Shown here: one piece after another, positions 4,200 to 51,719 of the stretch | How positions within the stretch are numbered: position 1 is the stretch's first letter | How the letters are laid out: every line of letters begins with the position of its first letter | Origin: Caldisericia bacterium | Lineage (GTDB): Bacteria > Caldisericota > Caldisericia > JAAYUI01 | Length of the DNA stretch: 64,000 nucleotides | Direction of reading: 5' to 3' | Assembly: GCA_963674785.1 (NCBI GenBank) | Contig: OY771555.1 | Location: 1,504,001-1,568,000 of the forward strand | Translations under genes and position numbers: made by a program | Notes under the pieces: generated by a model | What the model was told of the DNA's origin: nothing | Database searches by the model: none | The model's input: the letters and a program-made list of their open reading frames with translations, nothing else

Positions 4200-4613
4200 T
4201 TAGGCTTGCTTCTTTTTGTATTTTAGTCTCTCAAAAAGACTTATTGATAATCTCTCATTGTAGTTGGCGACAGTTGCTTTAAATGTCATAAGGTCATATG
4301 TTGATCGTACCAGATTTGGCATCAGCAACAGGAAACTTAGCGAACTTAATATCAGACTGACTCCGAGATAATTTTTGAGAAAAAAGAATCCGCCAACCGC
4401 TAGAATAAATAGCGTGAGATAAACAAATGAGCAGTTGTCTTTCATGTAGAATCTCTGACCACAAAAAACTCCAAGTAGAAGTATAAAAACAAAGTTTACG
4501 TATGGATTTCTTCTGTTCTTGTAGAATTCTTTTAGAAATGAGTACTTCTTATCCGCACTCCATGTTCTTGTGCATTCATTGATAAGTTCGGTTTCTGTTT
4601 TATATCTGCCCAT
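4200..4613 (-). CDS. TM2-domain-like membrane protein
   Basis: RRNPYVNFVFILLLGVFCGQRFYM matches the TM2 pattern (LG.fG.hRFY); ends in DLMTFKATVANYN. Confidence 0.7.
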   Translation of the reverse strand: MGRYKTETELINECTRTWSADKKYSFLKEFYKNRRNPYVNFVFILLLGVFCGQRFYMKDNCSFVYLTLFILAVGGFFFLKNYLGVSLILSSLSFLLLMPNLVRSTYDLMTFKATVANYNERLSISLFERLKYKKKQA

Positions 4614-4615
4614 TT

Positions 4616-9840: not shown

Positions 9841-10016
9841 ACTTCTCAAAACTCCTTTCGGGGTGTTCTTTGATAATACTATATCACAAAGTCAATAGAA
9901 ATGTGACCTGACTAGTTGATAAGTTTGAAACATTTTGCTATTATTTAATAATCAAAGTTTGGAAGGGGGTGTAGATGTAAAAATATCGAAAGCTAATTTC
10001 AGTTAACAAATGGATG

Positions 10017-30600: not shown

Positions 30601-32787
30601 TTCAACAACAAGGTCAAGATCGTTTACAAGATGAGTGAGAGCGCCTGGAATGGATGGATAATCTGACCATACGAGGTTTACTTTGAATGTTCCTGGTCCA
30701 GCCATAATTGGGAAGCCGACCCTCTGTCCTGTTACAACACCAGGTTTGTAGTCAGAGTAGTCTCTTCGTGTTGGTGCTGTTGGGAAAAGGGTGTCATAGA
30801 GATCAACATATCCCCATCCACCGATGTAGCTTGGAGTGAAAAGAGGTGTGCCATCATAGTCTTCTCTGATGTCTCTTGAACCATTGAGGAGTAATGCTTT
30901 TACAAGAGCTGCTGATGGTTCCCCATGAAGCTCAACTTCATCAAGCCACTGCTGGGCAAGCACAGAGCATCCGGCTACGTTTGGACATGACATGGAGGTG
31001 CCAGATGCCTCGGAGTATGTTGTTGTGTATGCCTCAATACCCATGACGTTTGCACCGGGACCTGTGATGTCTGGTTTGATTCTGGTGTCTGGTGTTGGAC
31101 CGCGGGACGAGAATCTTGCTACAACCTCTGCATGAACTTCGTGAACTCTTCTTCCGACTGAGTGGCTATATGTTAGAGGTGCGTCGATTCTGATTCTGTT
31201 TCCGCCTATTCTTGCGGTGTATGTTCTAAATTCGTCTTCGCCTGGGTTGTCTCCCGCGATCATGACCCTGTTACTTCTGCTGGCATTAAGGTTGAAACCG
31301 GCATTACTTGTGACCCAGAGGATAGTATCTCCTGGGTTTGCAATGTTTGTGAGTGATGTCGATGGTCTGTTGTTTCCGCCTGCTGCAACGCTCATGTCAT
31401 TTTTGGCAACGGATGGTGTTCCGAGGGTTGATGTACCTGGTCCGCTGTTTCCTGCAGAGATACAAACAACCATGTCTGGATTATCCCAAACAAATTGGTC
31501 TGTGTACTGACATTCTGCGGTATAGGTATCAATGCTTGAACCCCAGGAGTTACTGTGAACTCTTGCTCCAAGACCGTAGGAATCTGGAAGACCTGGGTTG
31601 AGGTATCCTAAACCTCTCTGTACAACAAGACCTGCCTCTGGTGCTACGCCTGAGTACTGTCCAAGTGGGGAGTTGTATCCATCACCCATTACCTGGCCTG
31701 ATGTGAAGGTACCATGTCCGTTATAGTCACTCCAGTCCTTTGACTGAGTTGGATCTGGCCCAGCTGGTGCAGAGTTATATCCGAAGTGTCCTACAATTCT
31801 TGGTGGGATACCAAAGTCTCTGTTTAATGTTGCAAGGTTTCCTGTGTCGCAACCTGTATCCTGGACACAAGCTACTCTTCCTTGTCCTCTGAGACCATAA
31901 TCCCAGACACCTTCTGATCTTGCTTCAAGGCTTGGTGATGAGTCATCACTTCTTGCCTCAATACCCATGATCTCTCTTGATCTGTCCATGAAAAGTTCTG
32001 GTTCAACATACGGGGTTATTGATGAAACTGCTTCAATCCATGCAATGCTTGCGATATCTTCTGCTTCGCATTCAATATTTATGCTTCCGTATTCTTTTTC
32101 AATGCTTCCGTCAAAACATTCGCCTGGAATAAGGTTTCTTACATCTGAAATTTTCTCATCAGAGTACAGATTGACAGTAATTTTTACAAGATTTTCTTCG
32201 TCAGCCTGAATTGTGTTTGCTATTTTTAAACCTGGATGCAGAGGTGTTCCACCAATTACTCTTCCCCAGCTATGTAGTTTTGAAACTTCATTTGCTGATG
32301 CCTTGATGATGATGCCGCCATCGGGAAGGTAACCCTGGATTTTTGCACCATTTGCTCTTATATTTTCTGTCCATTCGTTTTTAATTGGGAGGTCAAACTG
32401 GACGATGTAGTGGGTATCACCCATTGGCATGATATTTGGAATTGTCAAATCGTTTGGGAGTTCAGGGGAGACTCTTAAAATCCTGTCCCCATCAGCAATC
32501 AGCTTATAATCATTAATACTGACTTCTGTAAATGGGATAAATGGATTAACTACAAAGCCGTCACTTTCCAAAGAAGGAACAATGTTTGGTGCAATATTGC
32601 AGATTGCAAAATTATCGTACTCTTCAACAATCGATACGCCTGAAACGTGTAAAGAGTCAAAGTTTGTAGCCTTATTCCCAAGCTGAACCTTAAATAATTG
32701 TCCATCAGCGTTGGTTGGGATAATTGTGAGCAGGCTGAAAACCATTATAAAAGCCACAACAATAGCGATTGTCTTAAATCGGTGCAT
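27655..32787 (-). CDS. Secreted S8 subtilisin-family protease (KP-43-like) with Ig-like, beta-propeller, DUF11-like and PKD domains
   Basis: Triad VQDTG, NGHGT, SGTSMS; HSNSWG, SAGNSG, FSSRGP..D.RIKPD, PSAALVKALL, LVNDLDL, NNVE; C-terminal IDWGDG..HSYGSPGEY; GGAGG SD before ATG 32787. Confidence 0.9.
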   Translation of the reverse strand: MHRFKTIAIVVAFIMVFSLLTIIPTNADGQLFKVQLGNKATNFDSLHVSGVSIVEEYDNFAICNIAPNIVPSLESDGFVVNPFIPFTEVSINDYKLIADGDRILRVSPELPNDLTIPNIMPMGDTHYIVQFDLPIKNEWTENIRANGAKIQGYLPDGGIIIKASANEVSKLHSWGRVIGGTPLHPGLKIANTIQADEENLVKITVNLYSDEKISDVRNLIPGECFDGSIEKEYGSINIECEAEDIASIAWIEAVSSITPYVEPELFMDRSREIMGIEARSDDSSPSLEARSEGVWDYGLRGQGRVACVQDTGCDTGNLATLNRDFGIPPRIVGHFGYNSAPAGPDPTQSKDWSDYNGHGTFTSGQVMGDGYNSPLGQYSGVAPEAGLVVQRGLGYLNPGLPDSYGLGARVHSNSWGSSIDTYTAECQYTDQFVWDNPDMVVCISAGNSGPGTSTLGTPSVAKNDMSVAAGGNNRPSTSLTNIANPGDTILWVTSNAGFNLNASRSNRVMIAGDNPGEDEFRTYTARIGGNRIRIDAPLTYSHSVGRRVHEVHAEVVARFSSRGPTPDTRIKPDITGPGANVMGIEAYTTTYSEASGTSMSCPNVAGCSVLAQQWLDEVELHGEPSAALVKALLLNGSRDIREDYDGTPLFTPSYIGGWGYVDLYDTLFPTAPTRRDYSDYKPGVVTGQRVGFPIMAGPGTFKVNLVWSDYPSIPGALTHLVNDLDLVVESPGGDIYRGNQYVGGIGFSSDSEINATSTDTANNVEGVTINNSLETGMYMVYVDAANVPQGPQPFAVSIEYEAIVPDFDVRVTPDLVDIDSDWRTGTFPVDVTPIAGFTGDVALSCSLIPAELNSSFNPNSVYLNIDTETSILTLSTSDQLPVGTYYIIVRGTSGNLYHEDIITIRVRPGPNYKFDFIKDVGKGGIGNTHGDNGVMVYPSEKLGYSMQYNLGDMDLFAEMTVEDAIPMGAYYNGKAFPIPTHYSADNGNTWINERIPDGVGYGYRMRWDIHNIPGSGHLMRLSTGIPGYDNVSDDIESSTQQVMEIDSMGYPHVVWSNHILGSFPSDDEIFYTKWNGNEWVDLQGDPGISNISNTAATISANPDMFIDDLDNPHFIWKEDELSVHHCYWNGSSLVKLDGTAGTDILTTGLNSSYRYYSPRIEQGENGDISVVFSYYMPGGWVWNGMWWTYVNPAYGLYFTKVSGGIWTQLDGVTPGAQQELNSGNWTSSPTLAVDSNGDTYAGIETREWFWWFIIDDSLLVSKWNSATNNWTHFNGVTPGWEDMVPTIGLFAVAHSNAELKMQTGDIPHLTWMDEQIGSSDIIYTRFDGGQWVTANGTPGYENITNSALIEDNPYVCLQPDGRPALIWEEQSDSTNIRFSWFNAGWRDLFNNGGSEAITDIDSESILPNAQIDNSGTPFFSFVDNRTGDDDVYVTYPVLEYENANFPGEIIWEAKINDEIPTGVNAIVNNAYISGVYIDGATNFETTKTKSTTSNPFKTKLRVSKTADKSNVRVNEKIEYTIVVTNEGSIALTDVSVNDYMPKGMEYISSRPEAKIRTNGVYWIINKIEAGSSVTLKVWAKITDERLNGKVVQNKVAVTASNANVKAEDYSSVIVTTNTSGFPAPDATFKVNGDAKSNSDTEFILQVWSGNGPFSFKIDWGDGDSTSGNAELKTPKTLIHSYGSPGEYKIECEVSDRYGVTKLIEYKVQVN

Positions 32788-32928
32788 GTCCACCTCCATT
32801 TGATTCTGCCAATAAATCCTGAAATAAAAAGACATTCGTACTATATATTAATAAACTGTTACTTTCAAGTATTATGAGATTTTTTCAATAATGAGAAGAT
32901 TTTGCACATTTGTATTTTTAAATCGATA

Positions 32929-37380: not shown

Positions 37381-40300
37381 ATGAAGAAGCTGATAAATAT
37401 CGTGTTGTCATTACTTATGATGGCAAGTTTAATAACTGTTTTGCCTATGGCATCAGCAAGTGCTGCAGTTGCGGGAACACTGAATATCACAGTTGATCCA
37501 GCAGTCTGTGGAGAGGGGGCGGAGATTGTTCTTGAGTTTGAACAGGCTCCGGGAACTTTTAGCGGGTTCAACGTAACCTTTCTTGGAGGAGAGCTTCTTC
37601 CACCGACCTCAACCACTTCCTACAATTACTATGTGACTATGACAGTACAGGATAATGATTTGTTCACACCTTATCCTGTTTCTCAGTATATCGAATCGAT
37701 CACCACAAGTGGAAATACGCTTGAGATGAGGTTGATGAATGATTACACAGTCACAGGCACAAATGATGAGGTAAAGATTACCATCAATGAAAGCTTTGGC
37801 ATCAAATTACCACCTTGTCCTAATTGTGGACCACAAAACATTCAGGTTGAGGATGTCGATGCGGCTGGTACTCCATCTGGAGCAATTGCCATTAGCTCGT
37901 ATGAATTGATGGGAAAAGTTACTGAGATCAAGGTTTTGAGCGATCCCAACACTGCATCTTCATCAACATCAAGTTATTACTATGGTTATGGTTCAACTTC
38001 TTCAAATACCAAGTTCGGTGTCCTTTTTAGAAGAGATAGTTGTGGAGCACTCGATACAAATGAGTATATCCAGATAAAGTTTCCATCAAGTTTTGGTGGA
38101 TATACAACTTTCCCTGATGGTTTGCTGGATAGTTCAAAAGTAAGAGTTTGGCATGATCCTGTTGCCCCAATTTTCCAAGATACAGTAAGCCATCTTGATG
38201 GCGCACCATATTGGGTTCCATCAACTTCAGTTCCAGTTCTTGCTGTTGAGGCTGACTCAACACAAAGAACGATCACTGTGTATCTTGATGCTGGTGCATC
38301 AATTGCAGCAGATGACTATGTTAGTGTGATTTTTGATAAAGATATTGGCGTATCTCTTCCAACCACTGCGGGTTACCAGACGATTGAGGTTTCAACAACC
38401 GAAGAGTCATATTATGCAACTTCACCAGATTTTATGGTTGCAAATCAGGCTACCGTTGTTGCAAGATCAAATGCCGCAGGAGCTCAGGATGTTGAATACA
38501 ATATCGAGTGGAGTTTGCCAACTGGAATCACGCTCTCGGGAGATGCAGGGGACTGGATTGAGATTCAATTCCAGGATCTAGAAAATCTGAATTGGCCACT
38601 TTCCTCAAACACCCCGTTTGCACCCGGAATTGGCAATTATCCACCAACAGTCGCATTCACAAATTCTTCATACAGTTATTATTATAGTGATGTTGAATAC
38701 GGATCTGTTGTAGAGCCAACAGCACCAACTGCAACATTAAGAATCTATCTTCCACTTGGATATACTATCACTTCGGGCTCAAAATTTACCATGACTATCG
38801 ATCATCCAACACTCGACAACAATGTTAACCCTGGAAGATATAGGGTTATGCTCAAGCATAATAAAGATACTTCAAATACCTGGTCGTACTCAAATTATTT
38901 TGCTTTAATTGATGGAGTAATCTTCAATAGTGGATATGTCATTGTTGAGCCACCAACAGTAAGTAAAGAAGCTCAGTACACAATCCTCTTCGAAGTTGGA
39001 CAGGAACTTAGACCAGGTCAACAGATATTCATTGAATTCCCACAGGAAACTTCATTCACAAATTATACATCAATTCCAGCAGGTGGAGTCTGGTTGGTTT
39101 GGGATACGGTTACACCAACGTTTGGGGCAGATGATTGTGATATTAATTACAATACTGGAACGTGGGTTGAAGGCTTGCCGAGACCTCTTGAATTGAATCC
39201 GTCGATTTCAACAACAGGAACCAATAGAAAGGTAACCCTCACGCTTCCAGGTTCACCAGGTGATTATGTTATTAATGACACCGGTGATAATTTTGTTGCG
39301 ATCAGATTCTGTCTGAATGCTGGCATAAAAAATCCAATGACTGCAGGAATCTATAATCTTGAGGTTTCCACAACAACTCAGCCTGAAAGCTCTCTTTCTG
39401 CCCCATACACAATATCAACCTCGATTACAAATGTTGAGGTAACACCAACACCAAATGCAACATGCTCAAATGGAGTCCAGTATGAGGTCTCATTCAATAC
39501 AGGCGCAAACGGTGGGCTTGATGGTTCAGCCGGTGACTATATTGATATTGATTTCAGAGATCTAAACAAAAATCCTGCCCCTGATTATGCTTCAATCCTA
39601 AATACCTTTGAGTCAACCCAGGCTGTAACTGAAGTATCAGGATATAGTTCACCACCATTTGCAAGTTCAATGGCTTATTGGACAATCGGATTTAGAACCG
39701 GTGCTGCATTGGTTGCAGGCGATACAATTGATCTTCAATTCCCTCCGAATGTCACAGTTCCTGGAAGCATAAATGCAACAGATGTATTTATTTTTGATGC
39801 AACAGTTGCAGCACCAAGCATCTTTGATAACGATGTTCTTGGTGCAGGAGTTACCAATCCATCTGCAGTTGTTGTGGATGGAAACAGAATTACTCTTACA
39901 ACTTCCGCGGGATATGTGATTGACCAGATGATCTATATTAGATTCAGAAGGGCAGCAGGAATCATCAATCCATCTGCTCCAGGTTCAGCATACACAGTTA
40001 AGGTTGCAACATTGCAGCAGCCATATTTTACGCCAGGATTCTTTGCAATCACCGAAGACTTTATTCCGGATTACGGTGCACAGGTACCAACAGCTGATCC
40101 TGAGTGGAGAACAAATACAGCCCCAAGCCCTCTTACCGATGTATTCTGCCCAACTCCAATCCCAAATTCTGCAAGCTCTCCAGCACAGTATATCTTCTCA
40201 GTAAGAACACACGAAACTTGTCAGTTTTCTGGGTCAACTCTTACCGTCCAGTTCCCACAGGGGACATATATTCCAAGTTCAATTGACCCAAGTTTTATTC

Positions 40301-43300
40301 AACTTCGAACACAGGCAGATACTGCATTTTTGTTTGCACCAGATTCTGCATGTTCAACAGGAACATCAACGCCTGCATCGGTTACAATCGATCAAACAGC
40401 AAGAACAATTTCATTCCCTCTTCCTGCAGCATTCAATGCAACTCAATTTGCTCATGTTCTTATCTGTAGAGACGCTGGAATCAGAAACCCTCCAACAGTT
40501 GGTGTCAATTATCAGCTTGGAATTACTATTCAAGGAACAGCAGGTTGTTCTGGTGGTGAGGTTGAAGTAAAGGCCACTTCAGAATATTTTGCAATTACAC
40601 CTGCACCAATTGGTGGAATTATCCCACCACTCCACACAATAAACATTGGCGGTGGTTATTATTATTATGGTTATTCATCAAACCACCCAAGCAGTGTTGT
40701 CGCAATTGGACCACAGGCACTTAGAATTTATTTACCAGCAGGTCTCAAGATTCAGCAGACCCAGTCAGTTACAGTTACCTTCACAAGTGCATCAGGTCTT
40801 GTAAACACTTGTACAGAAGGTGGATATATTGCAAAAGTCAGGACATCAAAAGAAACATCATGGGTTGATAGTACTCAATATTCAATTGTTGATACCGTGC
40901 AGTTTAGTTGCGGAACATATCCTGATGTAAATCCACCATCCACATCAACTGAGGCACAGTATGATTTGAGTTTCACAGTTGGACAAACTGGTGGACTTGA
41001 AGCTGGTGTTGATACAATCACTGTTGCATTCCCAAGTTCAACAACCATGAATAGTTTTAACATGCCGGCAGGATCAATCTATGTTTCAACTCTCCCAATT
41101 ACTGGAGGGTGCCCTGCTGATTCTCCAGCAAAAGTTGTCACACTTCCTCCAACTGCCTCAGGAACGGCGGTAACATTTACTACACCAATCCATATTGGAA
41201 ACAGTCAAACGGTTTATGTCAGATTCTGCAAATCTGCAGGAATCAAAAACCCATATCAGGCTGGAAGTTATACGCTTCAAGTGAAAACATCGAAACAACC
41301 TAACTATGGTATCTCCTGTAGATATGCAATTGGAACAGCAATTTCTGACGTACAGGTTGAACCGATCCCAGCATCAGCTTGCAACGAAAATACTCAGTAT
41401 AAGCTCACATTTAAACAGGGAAGTTCGGGAGGACTTAAGGGTTCGAACGGTGACTATATAGATATTGATTTCTATCATCCAGATAACCCTGGAACTGATA
41501 TGGCTTCTATAAGCAATATCTTCACAGCTATAAATACTCCATCACCATCATCGGTCACAGTTAGTCCATACGGATATTCGTACAGTTATGGCAATAGCTA
41601 TGCTAGTGCTGTTGAATGGGTGGATACGCCACAAGGGAAGAAACTGAGGGTGTATGTACCCGCAGACTTCACCTCATCATCCTCTGGACAGATTACCGTG
41701 ATATTTGAATCAGGTGCTGGACTTGATAATACCTGCTTCCCAGCACAGTACAAAGTTAGAGTCAGCACAAGTCTTGAACAGGAAGAGGTTGATTCCTCTC
41801 CGTATTCCATTGAAGATGCTCCAAGACAGATTACAGTTGATGTCAATCCATCAACGATCTCAGAGGAAGCTGAATACACAATCAGATTCCAGGTTGGTGC
41901 AAATGGTGGCTTGACTGCAAACTCTGACACAATCACAATCGCATTCCCATCGGGTACAACTGTTCCTTATAACTCGATTTCAGCAGGCTCAATATGGATT
42001 GCGGAAGCATCAGACTTTACAAGCACTGGTTGTCCACCAACTCCTGTTGGTGGTGGGTCAGCTGTGCAGGTACAACTCCCACCAGATATTTCAGGTCAAA
42101 GTGTTACTTTCACAACACCAATGAATATTTCAAACAATGCACAGGTTGTTGTGAGATTCTGTCTTAATGCGGGAATCAAGAATCCATATACTGCTGATGC
42201 CTACAGACTTCAATTGAAGACATCCAAACAATCTGCATATGGAATATCTGAGCCATACGCAATTACATCAGCAATCTCTGATGTTAAAGTCTCGCATACA
42301 CCAAACATTATTAATGAGTGTGATGTTGAAGTAGAAGTGGAATTCAAAAATGCAAACACAAGCTTGTCGGGTGACCTTGGAGACTATGTTGATATTCAGT
42401 TCCAGGATTTTGTAAAGAATCCAGGCCCAGATTATGCATCAATCTCAAATAACTTCTCATCAAGCACCTCAATTGCAAATCTTACCGTTCATCCATTGAC
42501 ACAGCCATTTGATGCCACTGCAGTTCCATGGAATACATCAAGATGGGATATTGATTTCATGACGGGAACTGGTGGAGCGTTAACTACTGGTGACACAATT
42601 GTTCTTGATTTCCCCGCCAACTGTTCAATGACAGTTGCATCGCTTACAAACAGACTTTTCCTTTCTGATGAACAGTGGGATGAGTATTCATTCTATGCTG
42701 GTGATAACTATATCAATGCCGGTGGAGTAGCAAAACTTGCCGTTCCAGCTGCAATGATAACCGTTGTTGGAACAAGGGTAACAATTACAAACCCACCAGT
42801 TGCAGCAGGAGGAATTGATGTTGGAGATGGTGAGACTGTTTATATCAGAGTTCTCCAACAGGGAATCACAAATCCATCAACTGCCGGAGACTCATATGTT
42901 CTTCAAGGATACACAAGTACTCAGCCAACATCTGCAAACTCAAATTACTTTGGAATTTCCTCACTCAGACCAACAAGAGCTCCAGTCCCAATTATTGATA
43001 TGAACTGGGTTGGCCCTAACCCAATTCATAAACTTCCACCAAGCATACACACAAGCACTGCAGGACAGTCAGCTCAGGTGGACTTGATGCTTGAACTCAG
43101 ATCTAACTTTGATTCAACACTTCTCCCAACACCACAGCTTTCTGTTACCTTCCCAACTGGATTTGTAGTTCCATCATCTATTTCTGCAAATGACATTTGG
43201 TTATCTGTTGCAACAGCACCTGCTGGAGTCGGATATCCATTCCTCAATTGCTCAAATTATATGGGGACTCCATTTGTTGACTCAACAGCTCCAGCGGGAA

Positions 43301-46300
43301 CATTCGGTCCACTTGACAATACTCCAACTGTTTCTGGTAACACTGTAACATTTGATGTCCCAGCATTTTTTACGGCAGCAAATGCTATACCAGGTGCAAT
43401 TGTTTACATTCAGTTTAGACAATCAGCGGGAATCAGAAATCCAACAACAAATGCAACAAACACATATGCAATCGATGTCTCAGGAACTGATAACGCTGGA
43501 GTATCCGGTTCTTGTGGATCGGAGTATGTACCAGTAACACCACTTGAAAATCCAGCCTCAGCTACCTCAATAAATCCATCATCAATTACTCTCGGAACAA
43601 GCTATTCAGGAAGCTATACAACTGGATCAGTTCATCCTTCAAAGGTTGTTGCTCTTGGTGACAAATATCTGAGAATTTACTTGCCACTTGGATTTACATT
43701 CAGTGCAAACACAACTGCAAAAATCAAATTCGAAAAATCCGCAGGTCTTTGTAATACCGGAACCGCTGGAAGTTATATTGCAAAAGTTAGCACCTCAAAA
43801 GAATCAACGATGATCGAGTCGGCACCTTATTCGATTATTGCTGCTGTCACCGGTGTCAATGTTATGGTAGTTCCACCAGTCATCAATATGTATGCAAATT
43901 ATACAATCGACTTTGTTGACTCTTCATCAGGTGGATTATCAAAAGGAACTGGTACCATAACAATTGCCTTCCCAACTGAGACAGGTGTTCTGACCTCAAT
44001 TGCAGCAGGAACTGTCTATGTTGCAAAGAATGTTAACTTTGACAACAGTATCTGTCCACCGACTCACAGTGGAGTCTTTGGAACAGACTATGCACCACTT
44101 GAAGCACCACCAGTTGTTTCTGGAAAACAGGTCACACTCACAGTGCCAATCAATATCGACCCTGGTGATCATATCTACATCAGATTCTGTGAAAGCGCAA
44201 AAATCAAAAACCCTGCAACTGCGGCATACTATACGCTTCAGGTCATGACATCTGCACAACCCGACTTTGTTGTTTCAAACCCATATGCAATCAAGAGTGG
44301 ATTGAATCTACCAGAAGTTGAAGTTATTCCAAATTCAATCAGTAGATCAGGAAGCACAGCCAGACTTGCTGCAAACGCAACAGGAACAAATGTCATTGAA
44401 CTTGATACAGTCTCTGGTTGGATTGCAGGAGACCTCATTCTTGTTGGTGATGTGAGTCATCCATTTGGTGCAGGAGCCGTATTTACCAGTGTCACTTCAG
44501 TTGATACCATAAACAACACATTAACACTTTGCGACAATGTACCTGCGACATTTACAACTGGAACTGAAGTATACAGGTCAAGAACTGGAATCTTTACAGG
44601 CGCAACAAACGACCCAGCTCCTGGTAATAACTTTGTTGATGTAACCGCAGCAACAAGAGATTTGTTCCCAATCAGTTCATACGTTGCACTGATTGATTTG
44701 ACCGGTACAAATTGTCCTGAGTTGTTCCTTGTCTCATCACATATGTCCGCTACAAGACTTGGTCTCTCTAGAAATATCGTTGCTGACTTCCCTGCACCTG
44801 GAAACACAAGAGTTGAACTTGTACAGTTCCATCAACCAAATGATGGATGTTCAGGTGACACATTTGCCGAGACAAAAATCACATTCAAAACTGGTTCATC
44901 GGGAGCTCTTCTTGCAAACAGAGACAAGATATATGTTGCTCTTGAATATGCTCCATCAGTAAATGACAGGGGTTATCATATAACCGGATCATCAATTTCA
45001 TCCGGAAGTGTAATGGTTAATGATACAGTGTGTTCAGTTGCACCAACAATTGGAATTACACCAGTTGGTGGAGTGTATACACCATCACCAACTCCAACAT
45101 TTGGAAGTGATTATGTAACACTTGAAATCACCGTGCCAGAGGATATCTCGGGTGGACAAGAAGTTGTTTTAAGAATCCTTCCAAATTCTGGAATTCCAAA
45201 CCCATATGTTGCTGGAAGCTATACTCTTGCAGTTTGGACAAGTATTGAACAGTCAGCAAACGAATCTCGAACCTATGAAATAGTTGATGGTGTAGCATTC
45301 GATGTTAATGCTGTGACAGTTACTCCGCCAAGCACATCTGAGAACGCAAGCTATGTTGTTGACTTCTATACCTGTGTTTCACTTACTGAGAATTATGACA
45401 CCATCACAATCACATTCCCAGATGATACTGTTGTACCAGCGTCAATAATGCCAAATCATATCTTTATAGACGATGATCCAGTATTTGATGGAACAGTATC
45501 AGATGCGACTCCTCATCTTCAGGCACTTGCTCCGATTATTGTAGATAGCGGTGAACGTTCTATTACATTTACAACTCCTATGAGTTTCAGTGGAAACGAT
45601 AATCACGTGTATGTTAAATTTACGTATGAGGCTGGCCTGGTTAACCCGTCAGTTGCTGACTCATATAGGTTAAAAGTAAAAACAAGCAAGCAGCCAAAGG
45701 ATGTTGAAAGTCCGTATTATGAGATCAGAGATACATCTTCAAAGGCTATTGTTTTTCCAAATCCACCAACAGCAAATAGAGAAAATGTTGAATACACAAT
45801 TACATTCACACTTTCAACAGCTGGAAATCTCACAAAAGACATCAGTTGGGTAAAACTTCAGTTCCCTGATAACGATATCTACGGACTTGGTGGTGGATAC
45901 TCAACAGTTGAAGCATTACTTCCAACTTCCATTTCACCAGACAACATTACCGTCAACGGAACAAGGCTTACTGTCATCCCAACTGTTGATACAGTTGATA
46001 GAACTTTGAAGCTCATCGTTCCAGAAACGATTGAAGCCGGCGAAGAGATTGTGATTGTGATCCAGTCTGGTGCAGGTATTACAAACCCAGTTGTTGGATC
46101 ATACAGAATGGGTATTCAGACCTCAGTTGAACCCGTTTACATCGATACTGAGATTTACACCATCAAATCAGCCCTGGGTGGAACTGCCGGTTCACTTAGT
46201 CCAGAAATTTGCCTTTCCTATGACTATTCGGTTCTGACTGCAAATGAGGCTGCTGCAGCAACACCAGTTTTGAATGTTGATTCAGTTAGAAACTGGAGTG

Positions 46301-49300
46301 TCGGGGATATCGCTGTTATTGGTGATATGACAAGCACAAATATGTCAAATATTTTTGCAGCAAGAGTTGACACAATTGGTGCTGCTACAAATGTGCTCAG
46401 ATTCACAGTTCCACTTGATTTCAGTGTTCCTCTTGGTACCCCAGTATTTAGAATGAAAGAGATTCCAACAAGCGCAACACTTACTGGTCCTGGTGCCCCA
46501 GTACCAGCGGGAAGTGCTTTCATTCGAGTAACTGACCCCAGCCCATTTACTGCAGGAGACGTGATTGTATTCGGTGCTGGCTCAGGAGCAGAAGTCGTAA
46601 GAATCACAAGTATCAACGGAACAAGATTGGATGTTACCCCACCGCTTAGAAGTGCTCATGCCGTTGGTGCCGAGGTATCGATTGTTGCTTGCAATGTCGG
46701 TCTTGTAAATGCCGAAGGCTACTACATGATTCATTTTATAACTGGAGCAACAGGTAATCTAAACCAGGCCGTTTCGACAATAACTATGATATTCCCGTTT
46801 GACATGTATGTTCCTGAATCAATAGTTGCATCATCAATATCGCTCTCAATTGATGGAATCAATTTCACACAGTGTCATGATATCGATATTGATAGCGAAA
46901 ATCGAAAAATAACTCTTACGGTTCCGACATCAGTTCCATCAAACCATGATGCCTATATCAGGATAACAAATAAATCCGGAATCAGGAATCCATCTGTTCC
47001 GGGTAGTGTTTATAGGATGCAGCTTGCAACTTCCTCAGAACCGGATTTTGTTGATACAAGATCGTTTGTGATTGAAGGAGCAGGTGCTCCAACCGTTACT
47101 GTTAATCCATGTACCGCTGGTGAGGTTGGTGCGATCCATATTATTGAATTCTATATTACAAATTCGATACCACAGGGTGAGACCATCACAATTACATTCC
47201 CTGCTGACTACATGATGCCATCTGTTGTCAGACAAGAGAATGTCAAAGTTAATGGTACACAGGTCAGAGCTCCTCTTATTGGACCAACCGCAGACAATGA
47301 AATTGTAATTACCGCACCAAAAGATCTTCCATCATCTGGTAAGGTGACAGTTGAATTCCTTGAAGAATTCAAGCTTAAAAATCCTCCAACACCTGGTCAT
47401 TATAGACTTAAGATTAGAACAAGCATTGAACCAGATAACCTTGATGTTGATTCGAACAACTATTACATCTGTCCTGAGGTGCAGCTTTCTAGTCTGGTTC
47501 TTATTCCCTCATCTTTATCTCTAGGGATAAATCAAACAGGTCAGGTTCAGGCACAAGCTAAAGATGAGAATGGTGACAATATCTCTTACAATGTCGACTA
47601 CTCATGGCAGACCGACATTGGTGTTTTGTCTGGAATCACTGGAGACAGTGTTTCACTTACAGCTCCCGGTTCAGCAGGTTCAGGTATTTTGAAATGTGAA
47701 GCAAAGTACAATGGTCAAACTTTGTCTGCTCAGTGTGCAGTAACCATAACACCTCCCCTTGGGAGCGTTGTAATTACTCCCTCTACACCAAAATCTCTTG
47801 GGTTTGGTGTAACGCAAACTTATGTTGCAACAGCAAAAGATACCTCAGGTAACACAATGACTGGTGCAGCATTTGCGTGGTCTGTTACTGGTGGTATCGG
47901 CTCGCTTAGTCCAATATCTGGTAATACAACGACTTTGACAACTGGATCAACTGCTACATCTGGAACAGTTGTTTGTACTGCATCTTATGGTGGTGACACA
48001 AAATCAACCTCTGCAACTGTAAGCGTTCAGTCCAGTGGTGGGGGTGGCACTGACCCAGGTACCGATCCTGGCACAGATCCTACCTATATTGTCTCTGCTA
48101 CTGTAACACCAACTACTCATACGATAACCAGTAACCTCAGTGCTTTAACATTCCAAATAACAGCTTTGGATGACCTATCTGGTGGTCAGATAAGACTTTC
48201 AGTTCCATCTGGTTGGAGTTTCCCAAACTCTAACAACATGAGTGTGAGTGCTCCAGCGGGTGTTGTTGTTGGTACACCACAGTATTCCTCTTCAATCCTT
48301 ATTCTTCCAATTACAACTATGCCTAAAGGCAAAGCAATAAGTGTACAGTACCTTGCTCCAAATTATCCAACATCAGCCGGTGTACACACATTTAGTGTTT
48401 ATGCAAACAAAAACGGTGAAGCAACACAGGCTGCCGTCAGACAGCCAACGGTTACACTTATCGATTCGGGTGGCGGGACAACTACCAATGCCTCTGGAAC
48501 TGGTAAGTGCACAGTTGCTCCAACAATTGCATCATCAGGTGCACTCGGTGCAAAGTTTACTTTCACATTTGTTGCCGAAGTGGACATGTCTGATGGTGAG
48601 GTTCAGATTTATATACCAACAGATTGGACAGCACCAACTATGTCTCCAGGTGCAAAAGGATTTATCCAAATAAAGAATGCGACAGGAGAGGTAACCTTGT
48701 TGCAGGTTCTTCCTGGTGGAATCATTTCGCTTAATCTCGGAACCTTCCTTAAACACAACCAGGTTTCTGTAGAATACACAAATGTTGATGTTCCAGCAGA
48801 AGAGAAAACATATACATTTAATGTGAAAACTGCAGGTGTTAGTGGGGAGCTTAAAAACATCGCTGTTCCACCATCTGTTACCCTTGAAAGAACTAGGGTT
48901 ACTGCTGTCACATGCACACCAAAACCAAACTCTGCTGGTGGTGTAGCAAGCTATCAAATCACGTTCAGAACATCGGATGCTGGAACGCTTACAAAGGATC
49001 AATCGTTGGTTGTAATCAACTTCCCATCAGACACTGAGCTTCCAGGAAGTATAGCTCCATCATCAATAACTGTTCAGAAAGTCCCACTTATTGCACCACC
49101 ATCTATCAATCCTACAACACGTGATATTGAATTTACAGTTCCGACAGATGTTCCACCAAATACAACCGTTGCTGTAACATTTGAAACAACTGCTGGAATC
49201 ATCAACCCAACGAGTCCAAAAAACACTTACAAGATTACTGTTAAAACCTCATCTGATGCGACACCAGTTCCATCAAGTAACTATGCAATTGAAGCATCTA

Positions 49301-51435
49301 CAATCAGTACTCCTGATGTGACTCCTGACCCAGTTGTAACAAGTGCTGAGGCGAAATACACAATCAAGTTCAAGGTTGGTGGTTCTGGTGCACTAAAGCT
49401 TGGAACAGGCCAGATCGTGCTTAAATTCCCGAATGATACCTATATCCCAGCAAGCATTCAGTCTGGACATATCACTGTAAACGGAAAGGTACTCACAAAG
49501 AGACCAAATGTTGATACAGTAGCGAGAAAAGTTGCAGTTTATGTGCCAACTCCAGTTCAAGCAGGGGAAGAGGTAACCGTTGAGTTCTCAAAAGATGCTG
49601 GACTCAAAAATCCAACTAAGTCCGGAAATTACACAGTTTGGGCAAGCACAACCTCTGAGTCAATTGAGGTTGAATCCAACTCATACGGAATCGGAGAGTC
49701 GACGGTCTCAAACGTTAGAGTCGAAAGCAGTTCACTTGATTCTGGTGATACTTGTGTTGATTATGAGATAACATTTAGAACCGGAAGTTTTGGTTCGTTG
49801 ACATCTGCATCCACAATCACTGTTTGGTTCCATCCAAACTATAAGATCGGATCAATCAGCAAAGAGAGAATCACTGTAAATGGGGCAACAATCAAAAATA
49901 CTCCAAAGATTCAAAATAGTCAGTACATCACTTTCGATGTTCCACAGTCTCTCAATGCGGGAACAGATGTGACAGTCAAAATCAAATGTTTGAATAATCC
50001 AACAACACCAGGTCAGTATGAATGCAAAGTCAAAACCTCATCTGAACCAACATTGATTCAATCTAACACATACAAAATCGGTGAATCGATGAGTACAAAC
50101 ATGACAATCTCACCTGCCTCACCAAATGGCGACAATGGTTGGTACAATACAAATCCATCCATCATGTTTGATTGCAATGTCAACTCTGCAACTACTTACT
50201 ACACACTTGATGGAGGAAATAGAAAGTCATGGGCTAGTGTTCCAATCAGACTCGAAGATGGTGTTCACACAGTCCAGTATTGGTCAGAAGCTGACGGATA
50301 TAACGAAGAACAGAAACAGACAGTTTCGAATATCAAAGTTGATACCACAAAACCAATCCTCACAATCAATGAACCACAAAATGGTATCACCGTTGGTTCT
50401 GCAAAACTTGATCTTTCAGGAACATTTGATGAAGAAAATATTCTTGAGATAACAGTCAGCAATAACGGATCAAGCTCAGTAACAAGAATGACCTTTGACA
50501 AAAACGCAAAAACTTGGCAGGGTTCAGTCATGCTTGTTAAGGGTACAAATGTTCTTGATGTAAAAGCATATGATGAAGCTGGAAATGTCAGCTTCACACC
50601 AATTCTGACAATCAAGTATGAACCGGGTTCAGGTGATGGCGAATGTGCTATGATAGTTGTCAGTCCAAAGGATAATCAGGAACCTGTCGGTGGTGTACTT
50701 TTGGTCAATGAAGATCAGGCCGGTTATCATCATCTCGAAATGGATCTCCTTGTTCAAGCAACGACAACTGCAACAAATCCAACGGTTGAGGTAAGTTCTG
50801 AGCATGACCCAGATAATTGGATTGAAGTTCCATATGATTCTGTCAAGAAGGAAGCAAAAGGAAACGTTCAACTCAAGGCTGTTGCTGGAAACAATAAGGT
50901 TACAATCAGGCTTAAGGATTCATCAGGCAATATTTGTGGAACACCTGTAAACAAGATTGTTCTTTGTAAGGTTCTCGTTCATTTTGTTAACCCAAAGGGA
51001 TTTGATTCAACTATTAATGGACAACCTAATCCAAATATGCCTCCAGAATGTGACCAACTATTGTTCAATGGTAAGCCAATTACAAATCTTGATTCATCTC
51101 CATACATTGATAACGCAGAGGGAAGAACTTATGCACCTCTAAGACTTGTTGCAAATCTGTTTGGCGGAGTTGTCGGATGGGATGACACAACAAAAATGGT
51201 AACTGTTGATTTCGAAGGTAAACAATTAGCTTATAAGTTGGGTGCATCTTCTGCGACATTAACAGATGCCGATGGAAATAAATCAACCATTCAAATGGAT
51301 TCTAGTGACCCTAATGTTTCAGCAAAAACTGTCGCTAACAGATCGTATGTCCCATTAAGGATGTTTGATACTGCATTTGGATGGAGAGTTGGATGGGATG
51401 GCGATACTAGAACCGTTTCATTTGAATACCCATGA
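37381..51435 (+). CDS. Giant (4684 aa) secreted surface protein with about 22 Ig-like GIxNP modules, nested insertions and a C-terminal copper amine oxidase N-terminal-like domain
   Basis: Signal peptide MKKLINIVLSLLMM; repeated Y.I.F..G..G.L...I.I.FP...AGI.NP...Y.L.V.TS...S..Y.I; PNGDNGWY; RTYAPLR and RSYVPLR motifs; AAGGAG SD; uninterrupted 14-kb ORF. Confidence 0.88.
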   Translation: MKKLINIVLSLLMMASLITVLPMASASAAVAGTLNITVDPAVCGEGAEIVLEFEQAPGTFSGFNVTFLGGELLPPTSTTSYNYYVTMTVQDNDLFTPYPVSQYIESITTSGNTLEMRLMNDYTVTGTNDEVKITINESFGIKLPPCPNCGPQNIQVEDVDAAGTPSGAIAISSYELMGKVTEIKVLSDPNTASSSTSSYYYGYGSTSSNTKFGVLFRRDSCGALDTNEYIQIKFPSSFGGYTTFPDGLLDSSKVRVWHDPVAPIFQDTVSHLDGAPYWVPSTSVPVLAVEADSTQRTITVYLDAGASIAADDYVSVIFDKDIGVSLPTTAGYQTIEVSTTEESYYATSPDFMVANQATVVARSNAAGAQDVEYNIEWSLPTGITLSGDAGDWIEIQFQDLENLNWPLSSNTPFAPGIGNYPPTVAFTNSSYSYYYSDVEYGSVVEPTAPTATLRIYLPLGYTITSGSKFTMTIDHPTLDNNVNPGRYRVMLKHNKDTSNTWSYSNYFALIDGVIFNSGYVIVEPPTVSKEAQYTILFEVGQELRPGQQIFIEFPQETSFTNYTSIPAGGVWLVWDTVTPTFGADDCDINYNTGTWVEGLPRPLELNPSISTTGTNRKVTLTLPGSPGDYVINDTGDNFVAIRFCLNAGIKNPMTAGIYNLEVSTTTQPESSLSAPYTISTSITNVEVTPTPNATCSNGVQYEVSFNTGANGGLDGSAGDYIDIDFRDLNKNPAPDYASILNTFESTQAVTEVSGYSSPPFASSMAYWTIGFRTGAALVAGDTIDLQFPPNVTVPGSINATDVFIFDATVAAPSIFDNDVLGAGVTNPSAVVVDGNRITLTTSAGYVIDQMIYIRFRRAAGIINPSAPGSAYTVKVATLQQPYFTPGFFAITEDFIPDYGAQVPTADPEWRTNTAPSPLTDVFCPTPIPNSASSPAQYIFSVRTHETCQFSGSTLTVQFPQGTYIPSSIDPSFIQLRTQADTAFLFAPDSACSTGTSTPASVTIDQTARTISFPLPAAFNATQFAHVLICRDAGIRNPPTVGVNYQLGITIQGTAGCSGGEVEVKATSEYFAITPAPIGGIIPPLHTINIGGGYYYYGYSSNHPSSVVAIGPQALRIYLPAGLKIQQTQSVTVTFTSASGLVNTCTEGGYIAKVRTSKETSWVDSTQYSIVDTVQFSCGTYPDVNPPSTSTEAQYDLSFTVGQTGGLEAGVDTITVAFPSSTTMNSFNMPAGSIYVSTLPITGGCPADSPAKVVTLPPTASGTAVTFTTPIHIGNSQTVYVRFCKSAGIKNPYQAGSYTLQVKTSKQPNYGISCRYAIGTAISDVQVEPIPASACNENTQYKLTFKQGSSGGLKGSNGDYIDIDFYHPDNPGTDMASISNIFTAINTPSPSSVTVSPYGYSYSYGNSYASAVEWVDTPQGKKLRVYVPADFTSSSSGQITVIFESGAGLDNTCFPAQYKVRVSTSLEQEEVDSSPYSIEDAPRQITVDVNPSTISEEAEYTIRFQVGANGGLTANSDTITIAFPSGTTVPYNSISAGSIWIAEASDFTSTGCPPTPVGGGSAVQVQLPPDISGQSVTFTTPMNISNNAQVVVRFCLNAGIKNPYTADAYRLQLKTSKQSAYGISEPYAITSAISDVKVSHTPNIINECDVEVEVEFKNANTSLSGDLGDYVDIQFQDFVKNPGPDYASISNNFSSSTSIANLTVHPLTQPFDATAVPWNTSRWDIDFMTGTGGALTTGDTIVLDFPANCSMTVASLTNRLFLSDEQWDEYSFYAGDNYINAGGVAKLAVPAAMITVVGTRVTITNPPVAAGGIDVGDGETVYIRVLQQGITNPSTAGDSYVLQGYTSTQPTSANSNYFGISSLRPTRAPVPIIDMNWVGPNPIHKLPPSIHTSTAGQSAQVDLMLELRSNFDSTLLPTPQLSVTFPTGFVVPSSISANDIWLSVATAPAGVGYPFLNCSNYMGTPFVDSTAPAGTFGPLDNTPTVSGNTVTFDVPAFFTAANAIPGAIVYIQFRQSAGIRNPTTNATNTYAIDVSGTDNAGVSGSCGSEYVPVTPLENPASATSINPSSITLGTSYSGSYTTGSVHPSKVVALGDKYLRIYLPLGFTFSANTTAKIKFEKSAGLCNTGTAGSYIAKVSTSKESTMIESAPYSIIAAVTGVNVMVVPPVINMYANYTIDFVDSSSGGLSKGTGTITIAFPTETGVLTSIAAGTVYVAKNVNFDNSICPPTHSGVFGTDYAPLEAPPVVSGKQVTLTVPINIDPGDHIYIRFCESAKIKNPATAAYYTLQVMTSAQPDFVVSNPYAIKSGLNLPEVEVIPNSISRSGSTARLAANATGTNVIELDTVSGWIAGDLILVGDVSHPFGAGAVFTSVTSVDTINNTLTLCDNVPATFTTGTEVYRSRTGIFTGATNDPAPGNNFVDVTAATRDLFPISSYVALIDLTGTNCPELFLVSSHMSATRLGLSRNIVADFPAPGNTRVELVQFHQPNDGCSGDTFAETKITFKTGSSGALLANRDKIYVALEYAPSVNDRGYHITGSSISSGSVMVNDTVCSVAPTIGITPVGGVYTPSPTPTFGSDYVTLEITVPEDISGGQEVVLRILPNSGIPNPYVAGSYTLAVWTSIEQSANESRTYEIVDGVAFDVNAVTVTPPSTSENASYVVDFYTCVSLTENYDTITITFPDDTVVPASIMPNHIFIDDDPVFDGTVSDATPHLQALAPIIVDSGERSITFTTPMSFSGNDNHVYVKFTYEAGLVNPSVADSYRLKVKTSKQPKDVESPYYEIRDTSSKAIVFPNPPTANRENVEYTITFTLSTAGNLTKDISWVKLQFPDNDIYGLGGGYSTVEALLPTSISPDNITVNGTRLTVIPTVDTVDRTLKLIVPETIEAGEEIVIVIQSGAGITNPVVGSYRMGIQTSVEPVYIDTEIYTIKSALGGTAGSLSPEICLSYDYSVLTANEAAAATPVLNVDSVRNWSVGDIAVIGDMTSTNMSNIFAARVDTIGAATNVLRFTVPLDFSVPLGTPVFRMKEIPTSATLTGPGAPVPAGSAFIRVTDPSPFTAGDVIVFGAGSGAEVVRITSINGTRLDVTPPLRSAHAVGAEVSIVACNVGLVNAEGYYMIHFITGATGNLNQAVSTITMIFPFDMYVPESIVASSISLSIDGINFTQCHDIDIDSENRKITLTVPTSVPSNHDAYIRITNKSGIRNPSVPGSVYRMQLATSSEPDFVDTRSFVIEGAGAPTVTVNPCTAGEVGAIHIIEFYITNSIPQGETITITFPADYMMPSVVRQENVKVNGTQVRAPLIGPTADNEIVITAPKDLPSSGKVTVEFLEEFKLKNPPTPGHYRLKIRTSIEPDNLDVDSNNYYICPEVQLSSLVLIPSSLSLGINQTGQVQAQAKDENGDNISYNVDYSWQTDIGVLSGITGDSVSLTAPGSAGSGILKCEAKYNGQTLSAQCAVTITPPLGSVVITPSTPKSLGFGVTQTYVATAKDTSGNTMTGAAFAWSVTGGIGSLSPISGNTTTLTTGSTATSGTVVCTASYGGDTKSTSATVSVQSSGGGGTDPGTDPGTDPTYIVSATVTPTTHTITSNLSALTFQITALDDLSGGQIRLSVPSGWSFPNSNNMSVSAPAGVVVGTPQYSSSILILPITTMPKGKAISVQYLAPNYPTSAGVHTFSVYANKNGEATQAAVRQPTVTLIDSGGGTTTNASGTGKCTVAPTIASSGALGAKFTFTFVAEVDMSDGEVQIYIPTDWTAPTMSPGAKGFIQIKNATGEVTLLQVLPGGIISLNLGTFLKHNQVSVEYTNVDVPAEEKTYTFNVKTAGVSGELKNIAVPPSVTLERTRVTAVTCTPKPNSAGGVASYQITFRTSDAGTLTKDQSLVVINFPSDTELPGSIAPSSITVQKVPLIAPPSINPTTRDIEFTVPTDVPPNTTVAVTFETTAGIINPTSPKNTYKITVKTSSDATPVPSSNYAIEASTISTPDVTPDPVVTSAEAKYTIKFKVGGSGALKLGTGQIVLKFPNDTYIPASIQSGHITVNGKVLTKRPNVDTVARKVAVYVPTPVQAGEEVTVEFSKDAGLKNPTKSGNYTVWASTTSESIEVESNSYGIGESTVSNVRVESSSLDSGDTCVDYEITFRTGSFGSLTSASTITVWFHPNYKIGSISKERITVNGATIKNTPKIQNSQYITFDVPQSLNAGTDVTVKIKCLNNPTTPGQYECKVKTSSEPTLIQSNTYKIGESMSTNMTISPASPNGDNGWYNTNPSIMFDCNVNSATTYYTLDGGNRKSWASVPIRLEDGVHTVQYWSEADGYNEEQKQTVSNIKVDTTKPILTINEPQNGITVGSAKLDLSGTFDEENILEITVSNNGSSSVTRMTFDKNAKTWQGSVMLVKGTNVLDVKAYDEAGNVSFTPILTIKYEPGSGDGECAMIVVSPKDNQEPVGGVLLVNEDQAGYHHLEMDLLVQATTTATNPTVEVSSEHDPDNWIEVPYDSVKKEAKGNVQLKAVAGNNKVTIRLKDSSGNICGTPVNKIVLCKVLVHFVNPKGFDSTINGQPNPNMPPECDQLLFNGKPITNLDSSPYIDNAEGRTYAPLRLVANLFGGVVGWDDTTKMVTVDFEGKQLAYKLGASSATLTDADGNKSTIQMDSSDPNVSAKTVANRSYVPLRMFDTAFGWRVGWDGDTRTVSFEYP
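48035..48085 (+). repeat. Gly/(GTDP)3 linker
   Basis: SGGGGTDPGTDPGTDPT. Confidence 0.8.
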
Positions 51436-51481: not shown

Positions 51482-51719
51482 TGACAAAAGGGAGAAAACC
51501 TCCCTTTTGTCAGGTAGATTTCAAATCAGAACAGAAGAAAGAGAAGACAGAGACTCCTGGGGAGAAATCCCCGGGGGTTACGAGCGAGAAATCTCATTTG
51601 TTATGGTAGCTGGTGATTCCAGCTACCCGAAGAATAAAGATTTATAGGATGATAGATTTATTTTGTGATTCAAACCTGTTATGTTTGAATAGGAAGACTG
51701 AAAAAAATCCTCAGTTTTC
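51482..51719 (+). ncRNA. Candidate structured RNA element (five consecutive hairpins) between the two giant genes
   Basis: Stems at 51482-51512, 51552-51579 (GAAA tetraloop, G-U pairs), 51605-51627, 51668-51690, 51693-51719. Confidence 0.45.

Follow-up and report, generated by a model that had tools for sequence, protein, structure and literature searches.

The giant surface proteins of bacteria are usually pictured as beads on a linear string, and branch points alter the reach and the binding of such a fibre. Does the chain of P0001, a surface protein of 4684 residues from a Caldisericia bacterium (GTDB lineage Bacteria; Caldisericota; Caldisericia; JAAYUI01), branch? Its gene lies in the window analysed here, a stretch of 64,000 nucleotides of contig OY771555.1 (GenBank assembly GCA_963674785.1, positions 1,504,001 to 1,568,000 of the forward strand); all positions below are counted from the first letter of the window. 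The original prediction, made from these letters, held that two modules of the protein are each interrupted by two complete modules and then resumed, so that two-domain arms would leave a rod at every second repeat. We find this architecture well supported. It is likely that P0001 is a Sec-exported surface fibre of a Caldisericales bacterium in which modules A2 and A4 are discontinuous, each with a two-module arm; the branched fibre is probably a variant of known split domains.

Two modules of P0001 are interrupted at the same loop

P0001 is encoded by a single uninterrupted open reading frame (ORF), 37381-51435 (+). It opens with an N-terminus that resembles a signal peptide, continues with some 24 copies of a single immunoglobulin-like (Ig-like) module of about 140 residues and closes with a C-terminal Cu_amine_oxidN1 domain. 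The module profile, 139 positions long, was seeded from the four B modules only and iterated on P0001, where it gave 24 matches. Within residues 366-2306 the modules follow in the order A1, B1, A2 N-half, I2a, I2b, A2 C-half, B2, A3 and B3, then A4 N-half, I4a, I4b, A4 C-half and B4 (Table 1). The A and B modules thus alternate four times, as had been predicted, and the motifs quoted for them are all present in the translation where they had been placed.

The distance between the GDYIDI-type motifs (residues 390, 718, 1357 and 1667) and the LRIYLP-type motifs (residues 453, 1114, 1422 and 2097) is 63-65 residues in A1 and A3, against 396 in A2 and 430 in A4. The peptides PDYASILNTF and PDYASISNNF lie at about residues 733 and 1682, respectively. 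A3, which had been put forward as an internal control, is indeed uninterrupted, both in its motif spacing and in its match to profile positions 2-139.

Whole-protein self-BLAST of P0001 returned the self match only, and fragments were compared instead, in a database of 14 fragments only, to which the E values given here refer. The A2 N-half aligns with residues 3-54 of A3 at 51% identity (E 8.7e-15) and the A2 C-half with residues 72-152 at 41% (E 8.0e-14); the A4 N-half matches A3 at 42% (E 1.0e-6) and the A4 C-half its residues 93-153 at 44% (E 7.0e-13). Once the inserts are excised, A2 and A4 are colinear with A1 and A3 in the alignment. By the same comparison the modules of P0001 share only 25-53% identity with one another, and A3 matches B3 across its whole length (E 4.6e-7), so that A and B are diverged versions of a single module.

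The profile gives the same picture. Its partial matches in A2 complement each other, residues 694-761 covering profile positions 1-55 and residues 1077-1171 positions 67-139; in A4 they are residues 1644-1716 (positions 5-53) and 2045-2154 (positions 33-139). Between the two members of each pair lie two full-length modules.

The break point falls in the same loop of A2 and A4, between strands 3 and 4. The chain exits after NPxPDYASIxNxF and re-enters just ahead of the "SI.P..I.V"-type strand 4, two points that are bridged by about 11 residues in the unsplit A3. That two complete modules intervene stands as predicted, but the limits of the inserts move from 39610-40617 and 42457-43560 to 39622-40605 and 42469-43551. 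The A2 C-half contributes strand 4, a loop rich in Tyr and Gly, and strands 5-9 with LRIYLP and GLVNTC.

The halves of A2 are predicted to form one domain

AlphaFold2 models of residues 680-1182 were built from a 14-row alignment of the A2 and A4 units of seven genomes. The mean predicted local distance difference test (pLDDT) is 81.5 and the predicted template modelling (pTM) score 0.74. Both halves are modelled confidently, with means over 10-residue blocks of 75-93 (model residues 1-60) and 70-93 (401-490); low confidence is limited to the linker between I2a and I2b (residues 220-233, pLDDT <50) and to the final residues. The unsplit A3 reaches a pLDDT of 89.8 and a pTM of 0.87. The strand order and a short helix before strand 4 are the same in the A3 model and in the A2 N-half plus C-half, and in the model of residues 680-1182 the insert takes the place of the 11-residue loop of A3.

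The A2 halves were also folded as two separate chains, with their alignments, and scored 0.79, against 0.00 for the best of three controls; this mark is attained by 116/157 solved complexes and 2/215 mismatched pairs, figures that are approximate since custom alignments were used. The contacts coincide to at least 96% across three runs, with a partner pLDDT of at least 79. The interface comprises about 290 contacts, including those of chain 1 residue 42 with chain 2 residue 41 and of 24 with 57, and involves residues 1-37, 39-48, 51-56 and 58-66 of the N-half. In the N-half, the DYIDI strand is flanked by the LRIY and KVRT strands of the C-half, and the YEV strand packs against VTVTF. In these models the halves are an interdigitated sandwich, not two bodies in side-by-side contact. 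We read the two-chain result as a sign that the halves would be complementary parts of one fold; binding between them is not implied.

A structure search with the model of residues 680-1182 was dominated by its two guest modules. Since these matches came from the guests and left the split host untouched, the unsplit A3 was modelled separately in its place. Of the guests, I2a (model residues 72-214) matches YcnI (7me6_A; Z 9.9, root-mean-square deviation (rmsd) 2.8 over 110 aligned residues) and the I2b region (model residues 221-395) matches 7wrk_A (Z 8.8, rmsd 4.0, 138 aligned). A3 likewise matches 7me6_A (Z 9.2, rmsd 3.1, 115 aligned), and YweA (5mkd_A) is found with both I2a (Z 9.8) and A3 (Z 8.0); these Z values are only slightly over the level that the search tool calls common. 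With 7me6_A as the best match of both A3 and I2a, the models indicate that host and guest share one fold.

Paired cysteines probably link the halves

A cysteine in the N-part of the A modules, in the loop between strands 1 and 2, covaries with a cysteine of the C-part, in the GLxNTC loop. Seven genomes were surveyed, and in 28/28 of their A modules the states of the two positions match. Both cysteines stand at the usual places in 18 modules and both are shifted in three (A4 of genomes G000, G010 and G009); the seven modules with neither are all A1. To judge from these sequences, the halves are probably stapled across the insert by a disulfide, Cys695-Cys1144 in A2 and Cys1647-Cys2124 in A4.

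That A2 makes one domain is thus supported from several sides: AlphaFold2, the comparison with A3, two-chain folding, cysteine covariation and the fold shared by host and guests. The flanking halves both align with the unsplit A module and come together as one domain in models, as the original prediction had expected.

Three-dimensional domain swapping is classically seen where a long insert parts the halves of a domain, and the N-half could be completed by the C-half of another protein copy, which would join molecules into polymers or a lattice, or by that of the other split module in the same chain (A2n-A4c). The sequences would be compatible with such cross-pairing, the N-halves of A2 and A4 being 51% and their C-halves 49% identical, and neither single-chain nor two-chain models can separate cis from trans. 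In three genomes, however, the A4 cysteines are shifted in both parts while A2 keeps the usual pair: this joint shift fits pairing of A4n with A4c, not of A4n with A2c. That the fold is a normal monomeric module is evident from the unsplit A1 and A3, and there is no evidence of polymerisation. Swapped pairing is, in our judgement, quite improbable.

The simpler arrangement, a plain string of beads, would take the "halves" as degenerate remnants or linkers beside ordinary tandem modules that never join. It has a precedent in the related proteins P0008 and P0009, which are plain arrays, and the shortened modules of many relatives do yield adjacent N and C profile pieces. Yet remnants would hardly be among the best-conserved parts of the protein: between close orthologues the halves are 77-85% identical, against 58-79% for the inserts. 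They are moreover modelled with confidence, interdigitate in the two-chain model where the controls do not, carry the covarying cysteines and jointly make up one complete profile, all of which renders this arrangement even less credible than swapping.

The preferred reading, in which each split module is completed by its own second half, can be put as a path of the chain. P0001 consists of about 24 Ig-like β-sandwich modules, all from a single superfamily with a distant relation to DUF2808, and ends in Cu_amine_oxidN1. In A2 and A4 the chain lays down strands 1-3 and NPxPDYASIxNxF, exits in the loop ahead of strand 4 and folds two complete modules (328 and 361 residues with linkers), then returns and adds strands 4-9. 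The halves would interdigitate into a single sandwich, with a disulfide stapling the N-part to the C-part. Because the host and its guests fold as units of their own, the two guests would stand beside the stalk as an arm of two modules. Stringing along the stalk implies termini at opposite ends of a module, yet each insert starts and ends in one loop; the guest pair would therefore run out and back.

The nested unit is conserved and duplicated

Eleven genomes of the order, that of P0001 (G000) included, were compared. Matches at E <= 1e-10 occur in 8/11 of them. Six other genomes (G002 and G006-G010) match both the A2 unit (query positions 1 or 2 to 491) and the A4 unit (1 or 2 to 484) end to end, with 39-78% identity in the A2 unit; G005 has a short match resembling the C-half only. 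The pattern of N-half, two full modules and C-half recurs in proteins P0002-P0006 and P0010, and in truncated form in P0007.

Misassembly is a known risk in long repetitive genes, and the nested pattern might in principle reflect an error of assembly or gene calling. The chance of this is negligible: the gene is one open frame without stops, six further genomes as well as independent protein records show its architecture at 35-77% identity, and modules as dissimilar to one another as those of P0001 are too diverged to confuse an assembler.

The nested unit appears confined to this orthologue group. A search with a profile of the nested unit among 1.84 billion representative proteins gave 517 matches at E <= 0.001; among the best 150 of these, only P0003, P0010 and a 650-residue fragment match end to end in a single stretch. 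In 158 related proteins with 1214 module matches, the pattern was found only in the orthologue group, in seven full-length members and the truncated P0007. An apparent N-half/full/C-half pattern in P0093 was rejected, as it consists of three ordinary modules with partial profile matches. Fourteen further proteins with adjacent N and C pieces were set aside likewise: theirs are compact modules that lack the middle of the profile and have overlapping match coordinates.

A tree was built from 72 modules, the 12 positions of each of six proteins, with split modules joined; it recovers 12/12 positions with the minimum of 11 label changes. The A modules form a clade (support 100/100), in which A2 groups with A4 (88/88); I2a groups with I4a (98/90) and I2b with I4b (91/75). 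The higher-order repeat that had been proposed is borne out by these pairings. The branching among A1, A3 and the B modules is not settled by the tree, and a strict duplication of four modules is not implied. The simplest history is that a module pair was inserted once into an A module, and that the whole nested unit was then duplicated before the genera of the family diverged.

The arms are the fastest-changing modules

In comparison with P0005 and P0006, identity is 28-43% for I2a and I2b but 48-67% for A2n, A2c and B2. The guests are the fastest-changing modules of residues 366-2306, as is expected of exposed parts that determine interactions. The arms may serve for the lateral display of variable interaction surfaces, in adhesion or in contacts with other cells or a matrix; since no known binding family was found in them, this role is one that we infer.

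In P0004 the arm of A4 (aligned to 42529-43512) is only 37-38% identical, between flanking A4 halves of 67% and 82%, and its I4a is the longest branch of the module tree. This suggests replacement or very fast divergence of the arm in one lineage.

The two arms lie about 950 residues apart along the chain. One could imagine that they are connectors and not ligand binders, and that contacts between arms, contacts of arms with stalks, or completion in trans mesh the fibres into a two-dimensional coat or sheath. We hold this to be unlikely. If true, the probably monoderm Caldisericota cell would wear a coat of branched rods on more than 100 Cu_amine_oxidN1 anchors, and a duplicated self-nested module would be an undescribed route to branch points in a surface polymer.

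Features of the gene and its surroundings

Coordinates of the gene, its ends and the modules of residues 366-2306 are collected in Table 1.

Table 1 Features of the P0001 gene, in window positions.
Feature	Residues	Position	Strand	Basis and remarks
Surface protein gene (P0001)	4684 in all	37381-51435	+	ORF list and translation; orthologues P0002-P0006 and P0010 have 4405-4693 residues
Probable Sec signal peptide	about 1-28	37381-37464	+	Read by eye from the sequence
A1, unsplit A module	366-511	38476-38913	+	Profile positions 4-139; neither paired cysteine
B1	526-680	38956-39420	+	Profile positions 1-139; B-module alignment
A2 N-half, strands 1-3 and A-specific NPxPDYASIxNxF	680-747	39418-39621	+	BLAST, profile, model
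Insert 1 (328 residues with linkers)	748-1075	39622-40605	+	Modules I2a and I2b, low-confidence linker
I2a	760-892	39658-40056	+	Profile positions 2-131
I2b	930-1073	40168-40599	+	Profile positions 1-123
A2 C-half	1076-1171	40606-40893	+	BLAST, profile, model, two-chain folding
B2	1187-1319	40939-41337	+	Profile; B-module alignment
A3, unsplit A module, internal control	1333-1479	41377-41817	+	Profile positions 2-139; AlphaFold2
B3	1492-1630	41854-42270	+	Profile; B-module alignment
A4 N-half	1630-1696	42268-42468	+	BLAST, profile
Insert 2 (361 residues with linkers)	1697-2057	42469-43551	+	Modules I4a and I4b
I4a	1717-1861	42529-42963	+	Profile positions 6-139; sister of I2a in tree
I4b	1893-2044	43057-43512	+	Profile positions 1-133; sister of I2b in tree
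A4 C-half	2058-2154	43552-43842	+	BLAST, profile
B4	2167-2306	43879-44298	+	Profile; B-module alignment
Cu_amine_oxidN1, presumed cell-surface anchor	4562-4680	51064-51420	+	Pfam PF07833

The N-terminus of P0001 passes from a basic start through a hydrophobic core to ASASA. In Pfam scans the C-terminal domain scores well above the PF07833 cut-off (76.9 bits against 24.2), one DUF2808 match (PF10989, residues 4034-4092) has 34.2 bits against a cut-off of 25.3, and a Glucodextran_B match stays below threshold; an NCBIfam scan of the protein found no family.

All A modules bear a Tyr/Gly/Ser-rich loop between strands 4 and 5, such as GGGYYYYGYSS and SPYGYSYSYGNSY. In A2, A3 and A4 these loops are at about 40650-40690, 41570-41610 and 43590-43620; they adjoin the point where the arm returns. 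Residues 75-79 of the A3 model, within this loop, have pLDDT <50. The B modules have a conserved cysteine pair of their own, in GCPP... and RFCxxAGIKNP (for example residues 1244/1283, 1551/1594 and 2225/2270), a pattern that suggests one disulfide per B module, which is noteworthy where the lineage of a surface protein is presumed to be anaerobic. Positions 44299-44850 (residues 2307-2490) and 46171-46701 (residues 2931-3107) each encode a pair of repeats of about 75 residues with a "GD.I.(I/V)G" motif. Pfam gave no match to these repeats of P0001; they are a domain type distinct from the Ig-like modules.

The genome, a single contig of 2.23 Mb with 92% completeness, has 148 Cu_amine_oxidN1 (PF07833) matches and, at that completeness, no Omp85/BamA match. 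With these two counts, the envelope is probably monoderm, and it is plausible that P0001 is exported by Sec onto such a surface and held there by Cu_amine_oxidN1, which looks like the general surface-anchor module of the organism. Literature on the envelope of Caldisericum, on an anchoring function of Cu_amine_oxidN1 and on adhesins of Caldisericota was searched without usable result, and the anchoring role is therefore read from the position and copy number of the domain. In the window the domain ends the products of ORFs 37381-51435 and 51744-59942 and also occurs within ORF 5854-9849 (-).

Upstream of the P0001 gene lie LexA-like, metallo-β-lactamase-fold and RelA/SpoT genes and that of a 1726-residue S8 peptidase. 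The latter (27655-32835, minus strand) is a subtilase (Peptidase_S8) with DUF11/DUF7507 repeats, another large neighbour of secreted type. The next gene downstream, 51744-59942 (+), encodes 2732 residues, in which some 11 modules from this family are accompanied by a Glucodextran_B-like domain and a C-terminal Cu_amine_oxidN1; no nested pattern was seen in this product. TldD/PmbA genes lie beyond it. Between the two giant genes are a perfect hairpin with a 14-bp stem (51482-51512), about 50 nt past the P0001 stop codon, and a second hairpin at 51548-51573, both flagged by the scan on the minus strand; they may be terminators that separate the two genes.

Discussion

Several points weigh against our reading of P0001 as a fibre with folded side arms. 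The cysteine covariation amounts to few evolutionary events (three states), among kin that are not independent; the alignments behind AlphaFold2 and two-chain folding are likewise shallow, 14 related and non-independent rows. The two-chain result may partly stem from the familiarity of the models with common Ig-like sandwiches. The direction of the arms, the out-and-back hairpin and the rod shape of the stalk would follow from topology alone. Pfam scans found no ligand-binding family in the arms, and their fold matches are generic Ig-like sandwiches. In the tree the grouping of A2 with A4 is only moderate, and that of the A2 rows alone is 70/55. Finally, genomes G001, G003 and G004 (90, 93 and 69% complete) have no match to the nested-unit query.

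The finding opens no long-standing question, and what we say on the function of P0001 we infer. Its value lies elsewhere. A nested unit duplicated as a whole makes a clean case for work on how domain insertions evolve, and the analysis yields products that can be tested: fragment boundaries at residues 680-1182 and 1630-2166, together with the predicted stapling disulfide. The literature searched, which covers no subscription journals, held no description of the P0001 family or of nested DUF2808-like modules.

Comparison with known systems

Some related proteins are plain arrays of the same module. P0008 and P0009, distant relatives with 18-19 and 16 modules, and the product of ORF 51744-59942 share the GIxNP module family of about 120-140 residues, as beads on a string without nested units. 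The relation to DUF2808, a family of no assigned function, is distant: scanned alone, B2 reaches 17.4 bits, under the cut-off of 25.3 that one P0001 module (residues 4034-4092) exceeds, and nine other modules scanned singly gave no DUF2808 match. Precomputed DUF2808 matches are listed for P0005 and P0007. The best fold matches, sandwiches of the YcnI, YweA (BslA-like) and cohesin types, have only 3-16% sequence identity. A search of PDB sequences with the B-module profile found nothing credible, the best match being T4 gp10 (E 0.38).

Foldseek matched the three-domain model to the generic multi-domain adhesins UafA, CNA and SdrG, with E down to 7.7e-10 and template modelling (TM) scores of only 0.2-0.3. 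At such TM scores and Z values of 6-8.6, the Ig-like resemblance to sortase-anchored pilins and microbial surface components recognizing adhesive matrix molecules (MSCRAMMs) is generic. Those groups have Ig-like folds of the DEv-IgG or CnaB type, and their pilins carry isopeptide bonds within the molecule. P0001 is neither a sortase-anchored pilin nor an MSCRAMM, because it has no C-terminal LPXTG: its sole LPxTG is internal, at residue 1238, and the C-terminus reads ...TVSFEYP. Nested domains do occur in some pilins, RrgA for example. The RrgB paper makes no statement on nested domains (PMC3132780).

The nearest known parallel lies in the repeats-in-toxin (RTX) adhesins, where split Ig-like domains that project guests are established. 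Passages of two reports describe such domains in MpIBP, V. cholerae FrhA and A. hydrophila AhLap, where they carry ligand-binding domains that are said to project off the fibre axis (PMC12077191, PMC10865825). The fast divergence of the arms of P0001 agrees with such a role for its guests. As far as these passages go, the view of P0001 as unlike typical adhesins overstated its novelty. In both cases a giant fibrillar surface protein has an Ig-like stalk module that is interrupted by a complete guest and finished afterwards.

The differences lie in the details. In the crystallised RTX-like unit of AhLap (PDB 9CSE) the chain departs from the split domain once strand 1 is complete, according to the passage on it (PMC12077191); that of P0001 exits after strand 3, at about profile position 55/139, and its N-half has three modelled strands. 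The guests of RTX adhesins, as the same two reports describe them in part, are single domains of other folds (carbohydrate-binding module (CBM), PA14, von Willebrand factor type A (vWFA), RTX roll) with adjacent termini and the binding site at the opposite end (PMC12077191, PMC10865825), whereas the guest in P0001 is a tandem pair from the module superfamily of the host itself. In P0001 the nested unit is, besides, duplicated within a regular A-B repeat, and the protein has a Sec-type N-terminus and a C-terminal Cu_amine_oxidN1, in a genome without an Omp85 match. No Pfam match to an RTX array or a type I secretion signal was found in P0001, and its single GGxGxD stands in a Gly-rich linker.

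Without RTX arrays or a type I signal, and with another split point, guests of its own superfamily and a repeated nested unit, P0001 works like an RTX-adhesin split domain, yet stands outside that group. Split domains have become a practical flag for the ligand-binding parts of RTX adhesins. P0001 carries the same principle, of independent origin, into a barely studied phylum, with another family of module fold, another split point and a guest pair of its own kind.

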